Shown here piece after piece: positions 9,919-17,864 of a DNA stretch of 32,000 nucleotides. This DNA is from Methanothermobacter marburgensis str. Marburg. Lineage in GTDB: Archaea; Methanobacteriota; Methanobacteria; Methanobacteriales; Methanothermobacteraceae. The stretch spans positions 1,450,793 through 1,482,792 of the forward strand of contig NC_014408.1 of NCBI RefSeq assembly GCF_000145295.1, given 5' to 3'. Position numbers and translations under genes: made by a program. Positions within the stretch are counted from its first letter, which is position 1. Each line of letters begins with the position of its first letter. The notes below the pieces were generated by a model. The model saw only the letters and a program-made list of their open reading frames with translations, was not told the DNA's origin and did no database searches.

Positions 9919-10629
9919 GGAGTTTACTCTGTTGTGTGGGACTAATAAAATGTTCTAGGAATGAAGGGGTTATCCGTTTAACTGGCTTGCCAGACCAGTA
10001 TGCCATAGTATCAAAAGATATTAAAAAATGTGAACACAGAGCAGTTGACTTGTAAAAACACCTGCAAAATCTCGACTTGAACAACTTCTAAAACAAAACG
10101 GAACAAGAAAAAAATCAGATAAAAACTATAGATCCCTTTCATGTCAAAATGTAATAAGACACCATTGAGTTAGAGTTTCTGTGAACAGACAATACATCCC
10201 ATTACAAATCGATAAAGATGTTAAGCCCGTGAAGAATTACAGTAAAGAACGTGAAAAATTACGTGATGTAAGCATTATCGCTTCCTCCTTTGGCAATAAA
10301 CCATACGCTCCTGGTGGAGTGTAAGTACCGCAGATACAGACTCAAACAAAGACGTTATGTGATGAAATGCCAATTTATCACTGGGAAAATCATTCCAATG
10401 CCAATTTAAAGAAACACTCAATGCAATCTCATTTGCATTACAAAGAAAGAGATATTAACACTTCATGCATGCTTTGCATGGATTTTTTGTAAGTTTTTAA
10501 TGAAAATCATGAACATGGGATGTTAGAGATCTAAGAGAAAATGTAAGTGACGAAGATCTTATCTAATAAATTTTAATATTAAATTTGTGTTATATAATGG
10601 GATTTATGTTTTTCGGTCCTCAATTGGAT

Positions 10630-10660
10630 AATAATATTTTTATATGATTTTATAATCAAC
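10630..10660 (+). promoter_or_regulatory. Candidate BRE/TATA promoter for the island's first gene
   Basis: AATAATATTTTTATATGATTTTATAATC lies about 40 nt upstream of ATG 10685, with the SD GGAGGTG at 10672-10678 in between. This is sequence resemblance to the archaeal TATA consensus only. Confidence 0.35.
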
Positions 10661-10684
10661 TTTATTTTGCTGGAGGTGTTTTTT

Positions 10685-13204
10685 ATGAGAAAGTTTCTGT
10701 TCTTTATGATGGCTGTCTTGTGTTTCTATCTTATAGGTAATTCTTTCGCTCTAAGTTTATCATATGATGAGGTTTGTGACGCCTCTAAGATGATAGGAAA
10801 CTATACAGCATCACAGAACCGTATACCATCAATGGTTGTGGTTAATGGGAAGAATATAACATCAGACAATTATTTGTATGCGGCGTCCTCCACTGTCCTG
10901 AACCTTAATCAGGGCAAAAGGACCGGCATATCATTACCTGATTATAATCCTCCTACTAATCCGAGTGGGGCGGCAACAGGAACACTCTACAAGACATACA
11001 CAACAGGGACAGGATACCTCCAAGCAGCCCAGAACATCAAAAACTTCATGGAATCCAATGGCAGGTCGCCGAACTATGCCAACACAGCCATTGGACAAGT
11101 GCGCTACGAAAGCCTGATCTACGCCTATGCAAGGATAATAAACTTCTACAACAGCACAGGCAAACTACCAGACCACATTACAATACAACAAATAACAAAA
11201 AAAGAAGGAACCATCACAAGGCCACGGGCCGACTACACCTACAAAATCGAAGGTTACACCACCTATTTCATGGATAAGAGCACAGGTTCCATCCAATCAT
11301 GGCAATGGGACCTTGGAGACAACACAACAAGCACTGAAAGGAACCCAACACACACCTACAAAGCAGGAACATACACCGTAACCTTAACCGTCCGGGGTTA
11401 TGGTGTCACATCCACTAGGACGATGATGTTGGAGGTTATGCTTGCGACAATTCATGTTAATTCAACAGCAGTAACGTTTTTGGGACAAACTTTAAACTTA
11501 ACCTTTAAAATGCCTCTTAACAATACAGCCAAATGGATTAGTATAGGGGCTATGGCTACAGGCCCATTCAATGAGACAGTATTCCTTGTGGAGGATGGTG
11601 TAGCATATAAACTGGCAGAGCTAACCAACCCATTCTATCAGGTGAACAGGCAAAGTCAAAGGGAAATTGTCTGGACCGCCACCGCAGGACTGAACAGACT
11701 CATAGAAATCTGCACAAAACTCGGACTCGACGAACTCGAAACAATAAATGAATACCTCAACAACTTCAACCTAACAGAACAAGAAAAGAACTTCATCCTA
11801 ACAAACCATGGAAGATGCATAGACATCCTCCAAGTCAGCATAGAATATCCTGGCGAAGAAAGTGTCACAATAGCCAACATAACATTCCCAGGGAACCGAT
11901 CAACAAGGACGCTCCTACTACTCTACACAAACGGCTACTACATACACCCGCCAGGAGAAACCGGGCCCAACATAATAATAAATGACACCCTAACCTGGGA
12001 AGCCAGCAACTATGACGCCATTATAACCTACACCATAGCCACCAAAAAAATAACAAACCAGACACTACAATACTGGCTAAACAAAGAATACCCTCCAGGA
12101 CCATTAAAAGCAGCCTACGGACTATTCCTCGCAGGCCTCGAAACAATATACCTCCACGACACAATCGCAGACCAGGCAGCCGCAAAATACAACATAACAT
12201 GGACAAGAACCAGGCCAGCGATGGTCTCAGCAGGAGACCACAGCCCAGCGACATGGATAAGCCTGGAATGCAACCACAACATGGGAGTGAAAGCCAACGG
12301 AACAACACAAAACCTGAAAGCATTCAACTACGCAAGGACATCCACCATAAACCCAATAGAATACTATGTTATGGAAGCCTTATTCCCAGGATCAGACCCC
12401 ACAACCGCCCCAATAACAGGAATAGGCCAGAAACTACTCAATGGAGAGCCACTAGACATCCTCGAAACCGAAAATTATACGCTAATCACTGACAACCAAG
12501 GAAGATACATCATAATAGACCATAAAACAGGAATGGTCAGAGACATAATCTACAATCTTATGGGAGCATACTGCTACTACCACCAACAAACAGAATGGGC
12601 CCAAGAACTTGGCCGAACCATAATGTCCTCTGAAAGGTTAAAGTCACTCTTGGATGGTAATGGCACAGTAAATCTTGAAGGTTTAAGGGATAGTGTGGGA
12701 AAAGCCTTCATGGGTCTTATAGTTTCAATGCGACTCGCCCTACATAACCCCATGACCTTTGTTGAAATCATCAGTTATGGCTTGGTGGGTCAGGGCCTCA
12801 TAGGAGTTAACATAGCAGCATACGCAACAACAATAGCCTACATAAACTCCAAACTCAACAACATTACAGGCAGCATCAAAGAATTTATCGTGGAACATCA
12901 AACATACATTTCAAATGATTTTGTTGAATATATGCTTCCAGCAGTAATATATGTATTATCGAAATCTGGTGGTGGGGTAATACTTCAGCCAGTTGGTTTG
13001 TGTATGGCTATAGGCAATGGGATACTCGATTTTAGGGATCATTATCTCCCAGAGGAATATTGGAAATATATTGCATATCATCGTACATGGGCTCATGGTT
13101 ATGAGCTTAGGGCTTATGTTGGTGAGGATCATTGTATACACTATATTGAAATACCGAAGGACCCTGATGGTACTCTACGGTGGGATGAAGCAGTATATAT
13201 TTAA
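10685..13204 (+). CDS. Large secreted cell-envelope protein: signal peptide, PMBR-like repeats, PKD domain, N-glycosylation-sequon-rich unknown core, and a hydrophobic modular C-terminus (CT-A)
   Basis: Start ATG 10685 sits behind a strong SD. The signal peptide is MRKFLFFMMAVLCFYLIGNSFA. Three PMBR-like motifs are present (QNRIPSMVVVNG, NGRSPNYANT, TGKLPDHITI, with YLYAASS / LIYAYARI helices; nt ~10772-11191). The PKD signature WQWDLGDNTTSTERNPTHTYKAGTYTVTLTV is at nt ~11222-11416. Many N-x-S/T sequons occur. The C-terminal ~214 aa follow MGAYCYYHQQTE (ATG at 12560) and contain several hydrophobic helices. Confidence 0.85.
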   Translation: MRKFLFFMMAVLCFYLIGNSFALSLSYDEVCDASKMIGNYTASQNRIPSMVVVNGKNITSDNYLYAASSTVLNLNQGKRTGISLPDYNPPTNPSGAATGTLYKTYTTGTGYLQAAQNIKNFMESNGRSPNYANTAIGQVRYESLIYAYARIINFYNSTGKLPDHITIQQITKKEGTITRPRADYTYKIEGYTTYFMDKSTGSIQSWQWDLGDNTTSTERNPTHTYKAGTYTVTLTVRGYGVTSTRTMMLEVMLATIHVNSTAVTFLGQTLNLTFKMPLNNTAKWISIGAMATGPFNETVFLVEDGVAYKLAELTNPFYQVNRQSQREIVWTATAGLNRLIEICTKLGLDELETINEYLNNFNLTEQEKNFILTNHGRCIDILQVSIEYPGEESVTIANITFPGNRSTRTLLLLYTNGYYIHPPGETGPNIIINDTLTWEASNYDAIITYTIATKKITNQTLQYWLNKEYPPGPLKAAYGLFLAGLETIYLHDTIADQAAAKYNITWTRTRPAMVSAGDHSPATWISLECNHNMGVKANGTTQNLKAFNYARTSTINPIEYYVMEALFPGSDPTTAPITGIGQKLLNGEPLDILETENYTLITDNQGRYIIIDHKTGMVRDIIYNLMGAYCYYHQQTEWAQELGRTIMSSERLKSLLDGNGTVNLEGLRDSVGKAFMGLIVSMRLALHNPMTFVEIISYGLVGQGLIGVNIAAYATTIAYINSKLNNITGSIKEFIVEHQTYISNDFVEYMLPAVIYVLSKSGGGVILQPVGLCMAIGNGILDFRDHYLPEEYWKYIAYHRTWAHGYELRAYVGEDHCIHYIEIPKDPDGTLRWDEAVYI

Positions 13205-13335
13205 GGTGGTGGTTTGTTTGGATTGATAAGCTTTATGTGCTGATTATCTAGGTGTTGGTTTCAGTGGCAGATCTACTAAGTTGTGTTTGGTTTTGGCTTT
13301 GAGGTGATTTGTGGTGGGGTGATTGGAGAAAAAGG

Positions 13336-13725
13336 ATGGGTGGTTCTATGTTAGGTTTAAGAATAATCATAGGCTGTATACTTTTTATGTTAGTATTTAT
13401 AGGTTGTATATTACTGATATTAGGAGGTTTAGGAGAACGGGAAAAGAGGTTGGATTTTCTCTTATATGGGGTTATAGGTGGTGTGTTGCTTGCCATTGGA
13501 TCTTTTTTCCTTGGGGGGGATGTGGGGGCTTTCACATTCCTCATAATCTCTTTCATCTTCTTAAATAAGATAGGGAAACTTAAGATGGAATGGTTAGCCA
13601 AATCCTCCATAATACTAGCATACATCTTTGCTTTAACAATGATAATCTTAGACAGAATATTAATAGGTATTTTTGCTCTGATAGTGGCAACCCTTTTAAT
13701 CAAAGAATCCAAGACTTCAGTATGA
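13336..13725 (+). CDS. Small membrane protein of about 4 TM helices (candidate partner or immunity protein of CT-A)
   Basis: MGGSMLGLRIIIGCILFMLVFIGCILLILGG...; four hydrophobic stretches; GGAG lies 7 nt upstream of ATG 13336. It is co-oriented with and directly downstream of the large gene. The overlapping minus-strand ORF 13248-13739 is low-complexity (P/K/N/S-rich) and is treated as a shadow. Confidence 0.6.
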   Translation: MGGSMLGLRIIIGCILFMLVFIGCILLILGGLGEREKRLDFLLYGVIGGVLLAIGSFFLGGDVGAFTFLIISFIFLNKIGKLKMEWLAKSSIILAYIFALTMIILDRILIGIFALIVATLLIKESKTSV

Positions 13726-13732
13726 GGATCCC

Positions 13733-13805
13733 ATTGCATACAACATGGAATGCCGAAGAACCCTGATGGTACTCTACGGTGGGGATGAAGCAGTATATTG
13801 TTAGT
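13733..13805 (+). repeat. Short degenerate duplicate of the last ~75 nt of the large gene (3'-end handle, copy 2)
   Basis: CATTGCATACAACATGGAATGCCGAAGAACCCTGATGGTACTCTACGGTGGGGATGAAGCAGTATAT aligns with 13130-13204. It carries one extra G, which causes a frameshift, plus substitutions. Confidence 0.75.
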
Positions 13806-13819
13806 GAGGAGGGTCTTTT

Positions 13820-14056
13820 TTGGATTATGAATCTTTGTTTGGGAAGGTTTATTTTCTTATTTGTGTTGATATTATTTTATATTTTGTTGGGATTAGGCAT
13901 TTTAATGGTTTGGTTCCAATAGCGGCCCTTTTAGCCGTGTTTATTTATTTCCTTTTATTCTGGTTGCACTTCTTCGTGGATGAGTTGAAGGGAAAAAAAG
14001 AAGAAATAAGATGGATGATGGCCATAATCCTTGCATTAATTATATTCGGAACATAA
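13820..14056 (+). CDS. Small membrane protein of about 3 TM helices
   Basis: 78 aa with a TTG start 6 nt after GAGGAGGG (13806-13813). Hydrophobic segments include FLICVDIILYFVG, LVPIAALLAVFIYFLLFWL and MMAIILALIIF. A degenerate copy of its SD and start, with a stop at codon 3, also follows the large gene's stop at ~13205-13235. Confidence 0.5.
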   Translation: MDYESLFGKVYFLICVDIILYFVGIRHFNGLVPIAALLAVFIYFLLFWLHFFVDELKGKKEEIRWMMAIILALIIFGT

Positions 14057-14133
14057 AGAGGAGTTATCATGTTGCCAAGATGAAGGGGGATGTTAAGGTT
14101 TTTTCATTTAATAGACCATAAAACAGGAATATT

Positions 14134-14754
14134 ATGGGAGCATACTACCACCAACAAACAGAACTAGCCAAAAAACTTGGGAATGAAATTTTGAATTGGA
14201 GTGGTTGGTGGAAATTTATTGGTGTTGCTGGTGTTTCAACAGCCGAGGCTGCTGTGCTTGAACTGGGTGTGCTTTCAGCCCCAGAAACCCTTGGTTTGAG
14301 TTTGGCTGTTACCCTGGCCGCATATATTATCATGGAGCATCCTGAATGGCTACCATACATCAAAGACGCCGCAATAATGACACTACTAACACCAGGTGGC
14401 ATACCTCTTGCTATGGCGTATGCATGGTTGAGTAAGGATGCTACATACTTTGAATTACTTTTAAAGAAGATAACGGATCCTAATGAAGTCTTGGATAATG
14501 TGATAAAAGAGCTTCAGAATAGTTTAGATCCAAATAGTTTAATAGGACCCGATGGGAAAAGAGGAGATATTCTCGGGTTTTTCCGTGATAGATATGTGAG
14601 GTTCTATAACTCTCTTAAGAGGGGAGATATTGTGGATGTTGTGAAATATGGTATTGAGCTTATTGCTGGAGGAATAACGGTTGGTTCGTGGGTGGTGAGT
14701 GGCTTTAAGGAATTTGTGAAGGCCGTTCTTGAAAAAGAAACTGGAGGAGATTAA
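14134..14754 (+). CDS. Orphan alternative C-terminal module (CT-B) preceded by a copy of the large gene's junction motif
   Basis: It begins MGAYYHQQTELAKKLG, homologous to MGAYCYYHQQTEWAQELG of the large gene. The 22 nt TAATAGACCATAAAACAGGAAT at 14109-14130 equal 12513-12534. Homology stops after ...CTTGG and the remaining ~190 aa are unrelated: hydrophobic segments followed by a helical soluble part. Confidence 0.65.
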   Translation: MGAYYHQQTELAKKLGNEILNWSGWWKFIGVAGVSTAEAAVLELGVLSAPETLGLSLAVTLAAYIIMEHPEWLPYIKDAAIMTLLTPGGIPLAMAYAWLSKDATYFELLLKKITDPNEVLDNVIKELQNSLDPNSLIGPDGKRGDILGFFRDRYVRFYNSLKRGDIVDVVKYGIELIAGGITVGSWVVSGFKEFVKAVLEKETGGD

Positions 14755-15379
14755 ATTGGATTTAAATGCAGTCATATTATTTATATTTCTATTAAGTGTA
14801 GTCTTCATTTTCATAGAATATTCTCTAGGAAAAATCGCGTTGGGATTAATTGAAAAAGAAGAGTATGAAAAAGCCATAAATGTCTATAGGCTCCTCATAT
14901 CAAAAACTGAGAAAGATTTATTCAACATAGGATTCTGTTTCACCCAAAACAAAGAATACCAAAAAGCTTTAAAATATTATGACAAGGCATTAAAAATAAA
15001 TCCGGAATATGCAGAAGCATGGAACAACAAAGGAATAATACTAAAAGAACTTAAAAAATACAAAAAAGCCCTAAAATGCTACAACAAAGCCCTAGAAATA
15101 AACCCTGAACTTATAGAAGCATGGAACAACAAAGGAACAACCCTCCAGGAGCTGGGCAAATATGAAGAAGCACTAGAATGCTACAACAAAGCCCTAGAAA
15201 TAAACCCAAAAAGCATTGAAACATTAACTTACAAGGGAATAACATTATCCAAAATCGGCAAATACAAAAAAGCCCTAAAATGCTTCGACAAAGCACTCAA
15301 AATAAACCCAAAAAACAAACTATTACACAAAACCAAAGCAGCACTTCACAAAAAACTTAAAAACCAAGAAAAAGCCTGA
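14729..15379 (+). CDS. Membrane-anchored TPR repeat protein (TPR-1)
   Basis: It has an N-terminal TM helix (AVILFIFLLSVVFIFIEYSL) followed by about five 34-aa TPRs with the consensus AEAWNNKGxxLxELxKYxxALxCYxKALEINP. The start is uncertain: TTG 14729, or TTG 14756 behind GGAGGAG. It overlaps the end of CT-B. Confidence 0.85.
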   Translation: MKKKLEEIKLDLNAVILFIFLLSVVFIFIEYSLGKIALGLIEKEEYEKAINVYRLLISKTEKDLFNIGFCFTQNKEYQKALKYYDKALKINPEYAEAWNNKGIILKELKKYKKALKCYNKALEINPELIEAWNNKGTTLQELGKYEEALECYNKALEINPKSIETLTYKGITLSKIGKYKKALKCFDKALKINPKNKLLHKTKAALHKKLKNQEKA

Positions 15380-15403
15380 TGTTACAACCTCGAAAATGTC
15401 GCA

Positions 15404-15847
15404 ATGATGACCATACTACCAACACCAGGTGGTCTGCCAACATTCATCACCTACACATTACTAACAGGAGACACACAACCAATACAAAACTATCTTGAAA
15501 TACTATCAAGACAGTCAGACGGATGGACCCGTAGAATGGTAAATGAGTATAGAGAAGCCGTAGATACTCTAAGGGCGGTTAGCAGTGGTAGTGTTGGTGG
15601 CGATCCCGACGATATAGAAAGGGCTATAAATAATTTAGGTAAATTCATGAGGGATGAATGGAAGCTGTTCAAGGAGGCTTTAAAGGATGGGGATGTTGTG
15701 GAGGCCATAAAACATGGAAGCACTATAATAGGCACCGGGATGGGCGTTGCGGCCCTGTTAACATATGAGAATCGCGAGGCGATAGAGGCATGCATACTAG
15801 GATTCAAAAACTACCTAGAAAAGAAGTTGAGAGAGGCTGGAGCATGA
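15404..15847 (+). CDS. 5'-truncated paralogue of the CT-B module (CT-B')
   Basis: MMTILPTPGGLPTF matches IMTLLTPGGIPLAM of CT-B, LKDGDVVEAIKHGSTIIGTG matches LKRGDIVDVVKYGIELIAGG, and GFKNYLEKKL matches GFKEFVKAVL. The junction motif and first hydrophobic region are missing. The frame opens directly after the TPR-1 stop. Confidence 0.55.
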   Translation: MMTILPTPGGLPTFITYTLLTGDTQPIQNYLEILSRQSDGWTRRMVNEYREAVDTLRAVSSGSVGGDPDDIERAINNLGKFMRDEWKLFKEALKDGDVVEAIKHGSTIIGTGMGVAALLTYENREAIEACILGFKNYLEKKLREAGA

Positions 15848-17004
15848 ACCCCCTTAAGAAGATAAAGGATTGGATGGCCAGCGGAAAAGCTGGATGGCAC
15901 CTCAGCGGGGGCCGATCAAGCCTAAAACAGGGAAAATACAAAGAAGCTCTTAAAGAATTCAGGAAAGCCCTCAAGGCGAGTCCAAACGACCCGGAAATCT
16001 TGCACTATAATGCAATGACACTACTAAAACTCAAAAGACCAGAGAAAGCCTTAGAATGTTATGAAAAAATCCTCAAAAACAATCCAAAACTAGCAGAAGC
16101 ATGGAACAACAAAGGAGTAGTCCTTAAAGAACTTAAGAGATATGATGAGGCATTGGAATGCTATGAAAGGGCACTACAAATAGATCCAGAAGACGATGGA
16201 ACATGGAACAACAAAGGAGCGCTCCTTGACACAATCGGTAAACCTGAAAAAGCAATAGAATGTTATGAAAAAGCCTTAGAAATAAACCAAAAAAATGCAA
16301 AAGCATGGTATAATAAAGGTAACGGATTACGTAGTCTTGGAAAATATGAGGAGGCATTGGAATGCTATGAAAAAGCATTACAGATAAACGCAGAATTCGT
16401 AGAGGCATGGTACAACAAAGCACTAATTCTTGAAGAACTTAAGAGATATGATGAGGCATTGGAATGCTATGAAAGGGCACTACAAATAGATCCAGAAGAC
16501 GATGGAACATGGAACAACAAAGGAGCGCTCCTTGACACAATCGGTAAACCTGAAAAAGCAATAGAATGTTATGAAAAAGCCTTAGAAATAAACCAAAAAA
16601 ATGCAAAAGCATGGAACAACAAAGGAGTAGTCCTTGAAGAACTTAAGAGATATGATGAGGCATTGGAATGCTATGAAAAAGCCTTAGAAATAAACCTAGA
16701 AAACGACGAAACATGGGCTAACAAGGGAGTACTCCTCAGGAAACTTGGAAAATATGAGGAGGCACTGGAATGTTTTGAAAAAGCCCTTGAAATAAACCCA
16801 GAATTCGCAGATGCATGGAAATGGAAAGGAATAATCCTGGAAGACCTCAAAAAACCAGAGGAAGCCCTGAAATGCCACAAGCAAGCCCTCAAACTAAACC
16901 CCCCAAAACAAAACACTACAAAAACTTGGAAAACACCAAAAAAGTCCTACAAAAAAAGCCCTGAAAGAACTCCAAATGAAAGGCCAAAGTCACCCTTAGG
17001 GTAA
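15844..17004 (+). CDS. Soluble TPR repeat protein (TPR-2), about 10 TPRs
   Basis: ATG 15844 overlaps the CT-B' stop (ATGA). It has the same TPR consensus as TPR-1 and contains a recent internal 3-TPR duplication. Its last codons run into the CT-A' remnant. Confidence 0.88.
   Translation: MNPLKKIKDWMASGKAGWHLSGGRSSLKQGKYKEALKEFRKALKASPNDPEILHYNAMTLLKLKRPEKALECYEKILKNNPKLAEAWNNKGVVLKELKRYDEALECYERALQIDPEDDGTWNNKGALLDTIGKPEKAIECYEKALEINQKNAKAWYNKGNGLRSLGKYEEALECYEKALQINAEFVEAWYNKALILEELKRYDEALECYERALQIDPEDDGTWNNKGALLDTIGKPEKAIECYEKALEINQKNAKAWNNKGVVLEELKRYDEALECYEKALEINLENDETWANKGVLLRKLGKYEEALECFEKALEINPEFADAWKWKGIILEDLKKPEEALKCHKQALKLNPPKQNTTKTWKTPKKSYKKSPERTPNERPKSPLG
16127..16614 (+). repeat. 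Intragenic tandem duplication with a 306-bp period (3 TPR units)
   Basis: 16127-16308 is identical base for base to 16433-16614 (182 nt) in my manual comparison. A further partial unit at 16615-16680 matches 16105-16170 with few changes. Confidence 0.9.
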
Positions 17005-17505
17005 CAGCACCTTTGAAGGCTTAAAGAACAGCGCGAAAAAAGCTTTTATGAGTCTTATAGCTTCAATGCAACTCCCCCCACACAACCCCATAACCTTTAT
17101 ACTCGGTTATGGCTTGGTAGGCCACCAAGTTAAAATGGCAGCATATGCAACAACAATAGCCTACATAAACTCCAAACAGGCAGCATCAAAGAATTTATCG
17201 TGGAACATCAAACATACATTCCATGGGATGTTGTAGAAGGTATAATAACTATTGGTGGTGTTAAAGCTCTTGCTACTAGTGTGGAACTCAATCTAGGTTT
17301 TATAGGTGTAATTATAGGTGAAGGTGATTTGATTCTTAGGATAAGGGACCATTACCTACCTAGGGAATACTGGAAGTATCGTATCATCCAGGGTCATTCT
17401 ATGGTTATGAGGTTAGGGCTTATGTTGGTGAGGATCATTGTATACACTATATTGAAATACCGAAGAACCCTGATGTAGTTTGAGGTGGGATGATGCTCGA
17501 TACAT
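16976..17505 (+). pseudogene. Degenerate, frameshifted copy of the large gene's 3' end (CT-A' remnant, matching ~12630-13204)
   Basis: It aligns with the large gene from ERLKSLLDG (here ERPKSPLG*) to ...LRWDEAVYI (here LRWDDARYI). A 13-nt deletion lies at ~17176 and a net 4-nt deletion at ~17380-17400, with a premature TAG at 17476. Track ORFs 17048-17236 and 17200-17478 are fragments of it. Confidence 0.78.
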
Positions 17506-17864
17506 AGGCTTCTTTATTATATTGCGGTTATTTTGTCATCTTTCACGGTTCCAGTAACTTTGCTGGCCATTAGATCATATGCAGTGATGCAGGCACAGGT
17601 CAGATTATTGTTAGTGTTTCTTTTAATGATAAATTTTGTACTCCTATTATCTTAGGTCTAAGAGAGCGTTTAAATGAGAAGAAAAAGGGGCAATTGAAAC
17701 CCTCACGTTTATAATATTTTTACTACTTATAATTGTTCTTCCAGGTGCTCCTGCTTAACAAAACACGGGAGACATGTAAATGAATTATCATAACTAACAT
17801 GATGTGCAATTATCATGATGCTGTAATATTACGAAATAACCGGAATAAGCATGACACTTTATGT

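Follow-up and report, generated by a model that had tools for sequence, protein, structure and literature searches.

The C-terminus of a large surface protein of Methanothermobacter marburgensis str. Marburg is exchanged between strains as a cassette. Its gene lies in a stretch of 32,000 nucleotides (contig NC_014408.1, positions 1,450,793 to 1,482,792 of the forward strand), hereafter the window, in whose numbering positions are given unless another locus is named. Comparison with related loci (numbered from L001, their proteins from P0001) leaves little doubt that a short conserved junction in this main gene is the boundary at which C-terminal modules (CTs) are swapped by homologous recombination. 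Together with the partner genes that follow them, the exchangeable CTs probably make up a system resembling polymorphic toxin-immunity systems, carried by a wall-bound protein. The features concerned are as follows.

10685..13204, + strand: main gene, encoding a secreted, pseudomurein-bound surface protein (open reading frame listing, Pfam, hydropathy)
11444..12613, + strand: pre-junction body domain, ~390 residues (aa 260-649), with no match in curated libraries
12506..12613, + strand: junction (demarcation) motif YIIIDHKTGMVRDIIYNLMGAYCYYHQQTEWAQELG, the final conserved stretch before the variable C-terminus
12560..12595, + strand: 36-nt core (ATGGGAGCATACTGCTACTACCACCAACAAACAGAA, encoding MGAYCYYHQQTE), nucleotide-identical in all five close strains; the interval of the 5' crossover
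12614..13204, + strand: CT-A, the current C-terminal module, 196 residues, with a helical, moderately hydrophobic Gly-rich region and a small C-terminal subdomain
12560..14246, + strand: exchanged cassette of ~1.7 kb, 99-100% identical to strain EMTCatA1 (L002), with flanks at 69-80%

The exchange can be read from the breakpoints between close strains. Compared with EMTCatA1, the body of the gene shows 69-80% identity (synonymous divergence, dS, 0.84), and identity falls back to approximately 80% after 14246. The L001 locus, from a metagenome-assembled genome, is 98% identical to the window over 11401-12559, and the identity continues to 12595; past that point, L001 proceeds straight into the sequence found in the window from 14132 onward, giving body, junction and CT-B without the CT-A insertion. 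Mismatches of the window to L002 run up to 12559, and those to L001 begin only at 12596, which confines the 5' crossover to the 36-nt core. The 3' crossover lies in 14132-14246, where all four strains are identical or almost identical. The window is a mosaic of an L001-like recipient and an EMTCatA1-like cassette of ~1.7 kb, produced by a double crossover. The incoming segment carries CT-A, the small membrane protein gene TM138, the tail of an older CT-A, a second such gene (TM78) and a defective copy of the junction; its insertion pushed CT-B and the accompanying TPR gene downstream and made them an orphan pair.

An independent pair of strains, L001 and L005, shows the same pattern, with 74-82% identity in the body followed by 97-98% in CT-B and the TPR gene. 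The jump in identity exactly at the core in two independent strain pairs is direct evidence that recombination uses this site. The original prediction, made from the letters of the window and a list of their reading frames, had proposed that the junction acts as a recombination handle for C-terminus exchange, comparable to the demarcation motifs of polymorphic toxins (VENN, PxxxxDPxGL); the breakpoints support the first proposal, and the boundary together with the exchange supports the likeness in organisation. Replacement of the CT by recombination with cassettes, with orphan modules downstream, is itself a mark of polymorphic toxin loci. The core is also well kept in these strains, with 0-1 substitutions in eight of ten full-length copies (orphans counted), and when the window is compared with L003, no perfect runs in the gene are longer than those at the core (43 nt) and at the 3' end of CT-A (46 nt). 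This second run (VGEDHCIHYIEIP..., 13114-13159) is the longest of all, and the CT-A tail may be a further recombination handle on the 3' side of CT-A-type modules.

The boundary seen in close strains holds across the family. A search with the body domain returned 185 protein-cluster representatives at E<=1e-3; the named members come from Methanothermobacter, Methanobacterium and Methanobrevibacter, and all identified ones belong to Methanobacteriales. In 79 of the best 150 representatives the junction is reached, with the consensus (V/L)IDPETGIVRD-x(9-12)-GAYC(Y/F)xxQQTEWAxDLG followed by diverse CTs. The motif thus recurs in homologues, as had been anticipated, in the form of this looser consensus; the exact HQQTE occurs in the Methanothermobacter set only. 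The predicted collapse of conservation directly after the motif is evident in both pairwise similarity and column information: among 1,891 pairs, 91% are significantly similar in the 100 residues before the junction vs 7% in the 200 residues after it, and at aa 649 the information per column goes down from 2.1-2.6 bits to 0.5-1.4 bits. Among complete proteins of the family, the CTs are mostly 60-280 residues long and unrelated in sequence. Within the Methanobacterium loci L007 and L008, paralogous modules share 80-93% nucleotide identity up to the junction and ~40% beyond it. A conserved body, unrelated C-termini in close relatives and a sharp boundary between them, all typical of polymorphic toxins, are therefore found in this family.

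Species-representative genomes were also scanned with a degenerate DNA pattern of the motif, and matches were checked with a profile of the pre-junction domain. Seven Methanobacteriales loci were recovered along with seven chance bacterial matches; the positives are Methanobacterium and Methanobrevibacter genomes, several loci having two junction modules. A scan of the same representatives built on an alignment of Methanothermobacter sequences alone gave no match. The degenerate pattern failed to match any species representative of Methanothermobacter, so that the gene appears to be strain-variable. In addition, a contig labelled as an Anaerolineales metagenome-assembled genome (L020) encodes a protein of 1889 residues that agrees exactly with L014 (Methanobacterium sp. 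PtaU1.Bin242) at the junction and at the start of the CT; the L020 contig is probably mis-binned.

The junction peptide, which closes the body domain, reads ...IIDHKTGMVRD...MGAYCYYHQQTEWAQELG (nt 12506-12613). Its duplicate further downstream, which first drew attention to the locus, stands immediately before an orphan CT.

14109..14181, + strand: defective junction copy J', with the exact 22-mer, a 22-nt deletion, a 6-nt deletion and then the HQQTELAKKLG end
14134..14754, + strand: orphan CT-B, a 206-residue reading frame from the junction Met, matching the in-frame gene end in P0005 and P0006

The 22-mer TAATAGACCATAAAACAGGAAT is found exactly at 12513-12534 and, as predicted, again at 14109-14130; with up to 3 mismatches allowed there are 2 matches, vs 0.00 expected from 100 shuffles, and a chance repeat was rejected on this ground. 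The second block, TTATGGGAGCATAC...CTTGG at 12558-12612, is likewise copied with few (five) substitutions, all of them in the TEWAQELG / TELAKKLG part. Two details of its first description need correction: the copy spans 14132-14180 rather than starting at 14131, and the indel is of 6 nt rather than 3, namely TGCTAC (Cys and one Tyr), absent from the orphan copy. The peptide is MGAYCYYHQQTE in the main gene vs MGAYYHQQTE in the orphan. Between the blocks, when the L001 allele (GGAATA[GTCAGAGACATAATCTACAATC]TTATGG) is the reference, the supposed replacement of 23 nt by 1 nt is best taken as a clean deletion of 22 nt. The upstream IDHKTG block of the orphan is indeed out of frame with the reading frame 14134..14754, upstream of which there is an in-frame stop at 14119-14121, and nucleotide comparison agrees that alignability is lost immediately past ...CTTGG. 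The L002 counterpart of J' and its orphan has one further 1-nt deletion.

The conserved Met had been suggested as a potential start for the orphan, which fits this Methanothermobacter clade but does not extend to the family, where the consensus residue is Ser (26%) and L004 has Gly. In the window (14107-14136), the 22-nt deletion places CATTTAATAG, a weak archaeal TATA-like string, ~25 nt upstream of the orphan ATG and brings an AGGA to ~6 nt upstream of it, so that the orphan reading frame could have expression of its own. Near-invariant residues of the family at the junction are D618, T621, G622, D626, C636 and T642 (90-98% conserved), and the region from D618 to T642 (12518-12595, aa 618-643) was modelled as a beta-hairpin, a loop and the start of a helix. 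It is a matter of speculation that the near-invariant Asp, Asp and Cys mark a site of processing or CT release, possibly by autoprocessing.

The protein that bears the junction has the build of a wall-bound surface protein. Its reading frame has a TTG start at 10667, giving 845 residues, and the annotated homologue P0001 begins at the ATG at 10685. Hydropathy indicates an N-terminal hydrophobic leader, FFMRKFLFFMMAVLCFYLI, and Pfam recognises PMBR (E=1e-21) and PKD_4 (E=1e-12). PMBR (PF09373) scores 76.2 bits vs a gathering cut-off of 24.9, in three stretches, which places the protein among surface proteins with pseudomurein-binding repeats; the three repeats are accompanied by a PKD domain (aa ~140-255). 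Leader, PMBR and PKD together form the N-terminal trafficking and anchoring region expected of a multidomain secreted polymorphic toxin. The protein is 99% identical to one of Methanothermobacter sp. THM-2, named by NCBI a 'pseudomurein-binding repeat-containing protein'; the chief difference is a 5-residue insertion at aa ~109-115 (~10990-11010), where the window has KTYTTGTGYLQ vs K-----(S/A)GYLQ in THM-2 and other homologues. The body domain found no match in Pfam, NCBIfam, PADLOC, PHROGs or PDB-sequence searches. It was modelled by AlphaFold2 (aa 260-845) mostly at a per-residue confidence score (pLDDT) of 80-96, and a Foldseek search of PDB with this model gave nothing at E<=1e-3. Purifying selection acts on the body, whose ratio of nonsynonymous to synonymous divergence (dN/dS) is 0.22.

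Full-length homologues align through ...MGAYCYYHQQTE(W/L)A(Q/R/K)(E/K)LG and then diverge into the classes CT-A, CT-B and CT-B'. CT-A is carried by the window, THM-2 and EMTCatA1, and M. marburgensis has a variant of it that is ~70% identical. In P0005 (locus L001) and P0006 (locus L005) the gene ends in frame with CT-B, which corresponds to the orphan of the window. CT-B', the C-terminus of P0007 (locus L004), corresponds to a fragment downstream of that orphan. Three further CT remnants accompany these in the window.

13746..13800, + strand: the 3'-terminal ~55 nt of an older CT-A-variant gene, left as a remnant ahead of its partner gene; repeat families D8 and D14
15404..15847, + strand: CT-B' fragment, a 5'-truncated orphan of the second CT-B-like class, 85% identical to the C-terminus of P0007
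17000..17490, + strand: degenerate third CT-A copy, in three reading frames, without the junction and ending before the 3' tail

The third CT-A copy comprises repeat families D5, D6, D9 and D10 at 80-97% identity. The C-terminal subdomain of CT-A (RDHYLPxEYWxY ... YIEIPxxPDGxLRWDEAVYI) is shared across genera. A Gly-rich hydrophobic 19-mer is present in 50 of 67 CTs of the family, typically ~30-60 residues past the junction, which by analogy suggests that the CTs are membrane-active and may be toxins that insert into membranes and depolarise them.

Each class of CT is strictly linked across loci to its own downstream partner gene, and no partner matches a known immunity family. Four candidate partners are encoded in the window.

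13309..13725, + strand: TM138, with at least 3 predicted membrane spans, candidate partner or immunity protein of CT-A; the ATG at 13337 is a possible true start
13820..14056, + strand: TM78, predicted to span the membrane twice; candidate partner for the CT-A variant that was displaced
14729..15379, + strand: TPR216, with an N-terminal membrane span and TPR repeats, candidate partner of CT-B, overlapping the CT-B end by 26 nt
15790..17004, + strand: TPR404, a TPR protein (Pfam), candidate partner of CT-B'

Downstream of all CT-A-type modules, whether expressed or orphan, comes a small protein (78-138 residues, 2-4 membrane spans). TM138 occupies this place after CT-A in the window and L002 and after 5'-truncated CT-A orphans in strain DP (L023) and L024; L001 has no close homologue of it. 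Homologues of TM78 come after the main CT-A variant of L003 and after the orphan CT-A variants of both L002 and L003. CT-B and CT-B' modules always precede a TPR protein: TPR216 (Pfam TPR_1, E=1e-49) is also found behind CT-B in L001 and L005, and a TPR gene follows each CT-B' in L001-L006 and L023. A possible start of TPR404 at 15844 would overlap the CT-B' stop as ATGA. A further CT of a new type in L004 is followed by two membrane proteins of four spans each. The two TPR genes contain 102-nt (34-residue) tandem units (14950-15380 and 15930-16930) that are 60-89% identical within and between the genes (families D1-D4). For TM138, TM78 and the CTs, nothing was found in Pfam, NCBIfam, PADLOC, PHROGs or PDB-sequence searches, in which PMBR, PKD and TPR were the only matches at the locus. 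Orphan arrays are present in all Methanothermobacter loci examined. The orphan CTs are often 5'-truncated or frameshifted, their partner genes being intact, and orphans that have no start of their own keep 42 residues of body plus junction (L002 13315-, L003 12838-, L005 14199-).

The main gene and its arrays form an island. In the window (9985-17825) and in L004 (7552-13836), it lies between the same flanks, genes for a family-B DNA polymerase and an AI-2E-family transporter, both ~95% identical, and its orientation relative to them is opposite in the two. The island occupies other chromosomal places in L001, in L002/L005, in L003/L023 and in L006. No convincing terminal inverted repeats that could explain its inversion or mobility were found. 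In L006 (M. thermautotrophicus CP064337, 8596-11437), the main gene is split into at least 3 reading frames (131, 262 and 478 residues), the last of which retains the junction, a CT-B'-like module and the following TPR gene; this main gene is apparently a pseudogene. Approximately 3 kb upstream of the main gene, L002 (4368-5039) and L005 (4141-4710) have a gene for a Peptidase_C39 of the bacteriocin-processing type together with small reading frames, and this region may be a second antagonism locus beside the island.

The lineage of the window thus had the arrangement body, junction, CT-B and TPR gene, as still seen in L001, before a double crossover with an EMTCatA1-like donor brought in the CT-A cassette of ~1.7 kb. 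If the cassettes work as the organisation suggests, a wall-anchored protein comparable to WapA, Rhs or CdiA would present its C-terminal toxin to neighbouring cells, and the CT would insert into the membrane of the target cell and depolarise it. The producer would be protected by the co-varying small membrane proteins (CT-A types) or by the TPR proteins (CT-B types). Displaced immunity genes would be kept, so that arrays of 5'-truncated orphan CTs with intact partners would accumulate. By analogy with bacterial systems, a toxin-immunity function of the CT/partner pairs is slightly favoured. The more specific picture, a lineage-specific, Sec-exported and wall-tethered system of contact-dependent competition in which the body processes itself at GAY-C, delivers membrane-depolarising toxins and is countered by membrane or TPR immunity proteins, is a tentative proposal that falls short of being probable.

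Several observations weigh against a toxin-immunity function. The CTs match no known toxin domain (Pfam, NCBIfam) or solved structure (PDB). Their AlphaFold2 models are helical at low confidence (pLDDT 30-57), so nothing can be deduced from the CT fold; CT-A alone, modelled from a CT-A-specific alignment, reached a pLDDT of 47 and was left out of the fold search because low-confidence models give meaningless matches. The conserved C-terminal subdomain of CT-A has no catalytic-looking conserved residues and appears more structural than enzymatic. TPR proteins are atypical as immunity proteins, and the dN/dS of the orphans rests on 5-18 differences, too few to be informative. Lastly, hydrophobic C-termini could equally anchor the protein in the membrane of its own producer.

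That last point is central to the serious rival, a non-lethal role in recognition or anchoring, which is considered rather unlikely. The CT would be a polymorphic membrane anchor or self-recognition module that binds its cognate partner in its own or a sibling's membrane and thereby mediates strain-specific adhesion or kin recognition, and cassette exchange would alter the recognition type, as likened to Proteus IdsD/IdsE and Myxococcus TraA. It draws on the same Gly-rich hydrophobic helices and membrane-protein partners, on the missing enzymatic signature with its conserved structural tail in CT-A, and on the place of the family among the large 'adhesin-like' proteins of Methanobacteriales; a self/non-self function is also among the hypotheses put forward for the analogous archaeal VARTIG module (PMC8416519). 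However, the N-terminal PMBR repeats already anchor the protein in the wall, making a second anchor needless, and truncated CTs beside intact partners fit immunity genes that have been kept, whereas recognition needs both partners to be expressed.

The same truncated orphans invite comparison with the silent cassettes of Neisseria pilE/pilS, in which case they would be a gene-conversion reservoir for surface variation against viruses or predators and the downstream genes would be passengers. In the startless orphans, homology arms are retained in the form of the junction and 42 body residues, the core of the junction is conserved in nucleotide sequence, and a second long run of identity lies at the 3' end of CT-A (46 nt at 13114). 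This is nevertheless improbable, since the strict linkage of CT and partner, often in overlapping or coupled frames, is needless for simple antigenic variation, and the observed events are insertions of CT plus partner between strains, not intragenomic conversion tracts.

Equally improbable is that the repeats are what segmental duplication and decay left behind in a rapidly evolving accessory island, with a functionless junction merely conserved enough to pair: the 22-nt and 6-nt deletions of J' and the 1-nt deletion in L002, the frameshifted third CT-A copy, the fragmented main gene of M. thermautotrophicus L006 and the variable chromosomal position of the island between strains would suit it, but the same architecture spans three genera and 185 protein clusters, the body is held by purifying selection (dN/dS as above), partner genes are intact next to truncated CTs, and two independent cassette transfers between lineages ~20% or more apart in nucleotides speak for selection of the exchanged unit.

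Polymorphic toxin systems are regarded as rare in archaea and as mostly borrowed there from bacteria (PMC3482391), and none has been experimentally characterised in archaea, methanogens included (PMC8416519). The present locus shows the full genetic signature of such a system, that is, a demarcation motif, cassettes of CT plus partner, orphan arrays and fresh transfer between strains. Its scaffold is archaeal, composed of wall-binding repeats and an uncurated domain of Methanothermobacter, Methanobacterium and Methanobrevibacter. A survey of archaeal polymorphic toxins was reportedly published by Makarova et al. in mBio in 2019, and this family may already be listed there. A 2026 preprint on adhesin-like proteins of Methanobacteriales makes no mention of C-terminal variation, toxins or recombination. 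The locus proposes a role for part of the large unexplained repertoire of 'adhesin-like proteins' and offers a concrete candidate, open to testing, for the way in which methanogen strains compete with or recognise one another in digesters, guts and sediments. For this purpose the strain of the window and that of L001 constitute a natural near-isogenic pair, differing at the locus mainly by one cassette. If the competition system proves true, it would be the first polymorphic toxin system of entirely archaeal parts and the first mechanism of interference competition known in methanogens.

Among known systems (for WapA, CdiA and colicins see also PMC3482391), one close in layout is WapA/Rhs, exemplified by WapA-WapI of Bacillus subtilis. 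Both have a Sec-type leader, N-terminal wall-binding repeats and a long body ending in a demarcation motif, followed by a hypervariable CT with the immunity gene (here the candidate partner) directly downstream; the pairs are strain-specific and orphans lie downstream. Unlike WapA/Rhs, the present protein has neither RHS/YD repeats nor PxxxxDPxGL, its PMBR wall repeats are archaeal, its pre-CT domain of ~390 residues is uncurated, and its CTs are not recognisable nucleases or other enzymes. Membership of the Rhs/YD family was rejected, as Pfam gives no RHS or YD match and the junction consensus differs; the DPxTG piece of the junction resembles the DPxGL of Rhs only superficially.

In CdiA/CdiI, too, conserved sequence gives way to variable sequence at a short conserved peptide motif, incoming cassettes displace old CTs, and orphan pairs of CT and partner keep a piece of the pre-motif sequence as a homology arm. 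The CdiA-CT of EC93 is membrane-active and its CdiI is small with two membrane spans, to which the CTs and candidate partners described here may be likened. Unlike CdiA, the motif here is GAYC(Y/F)xxQQTEWAxDLG, the host is an archaeon with a pseudomurein wall, and TPS, FHA repeats, CdiB and an outer membrane are lacking. Membership of this family was likewise rejected, Pfam and NCBIfam giving no TPS, FHA or CdiB and the main protein having no VENN. As the defining repeats and motifs of Rhs and CdiA are absent, the locus is a member of neither family.

The Neisseria systems MafB/MafI and pilE/pilS share with it the promoterless or 5'-truncated alternative 3' cassettes downstream and the short conserved recombination sequences. 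They differ in that pilS cassettes have no partner gene, MafB has a DUF1020 N-terminus and known toxin CTs, and neither is archaeal. The closest archaeal parallel is VARTIG of Thermococcales, a large secreted protein in which recombination between strains has made the C-terminal region hypervariable and which has variable downstream genes, a polymorphic-toxin-like organisation and an unknown function (PMC8416519). The variable part of VARTIG is an Ig domain, and its downstream genes also encode Ig proteins; no counterpart was found outside Thermococcales in the Ig-centred searches of its authors (PMC8416519). Unlike VARTIG, the locus described here has a hydrophobic helical module past a sharp motif, membrane or TPR partners and clear orphan arrays.

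With regard to the CTs themselves, there is a likeness to the pore-forming colicins and Tox-WTIP, which also have a helical C-terminal module of ~100-200 residues, a hydrophobic Gly-rich hairpin and an adjacent small membrane partner. Unlike in that group, the CTs have no sequence match to those domains (Pfam), and their structure prediction is too poor for a comparison of folds. Bacterial polymorphic toxins are known to include non-catalytic, pore-forming CTs as well as immunity proteins with two membrane spans (PMC3482391), and on this precedent the best guess for the present cassettes is a membrane-active toxin with a membrane-resident immunity protein.

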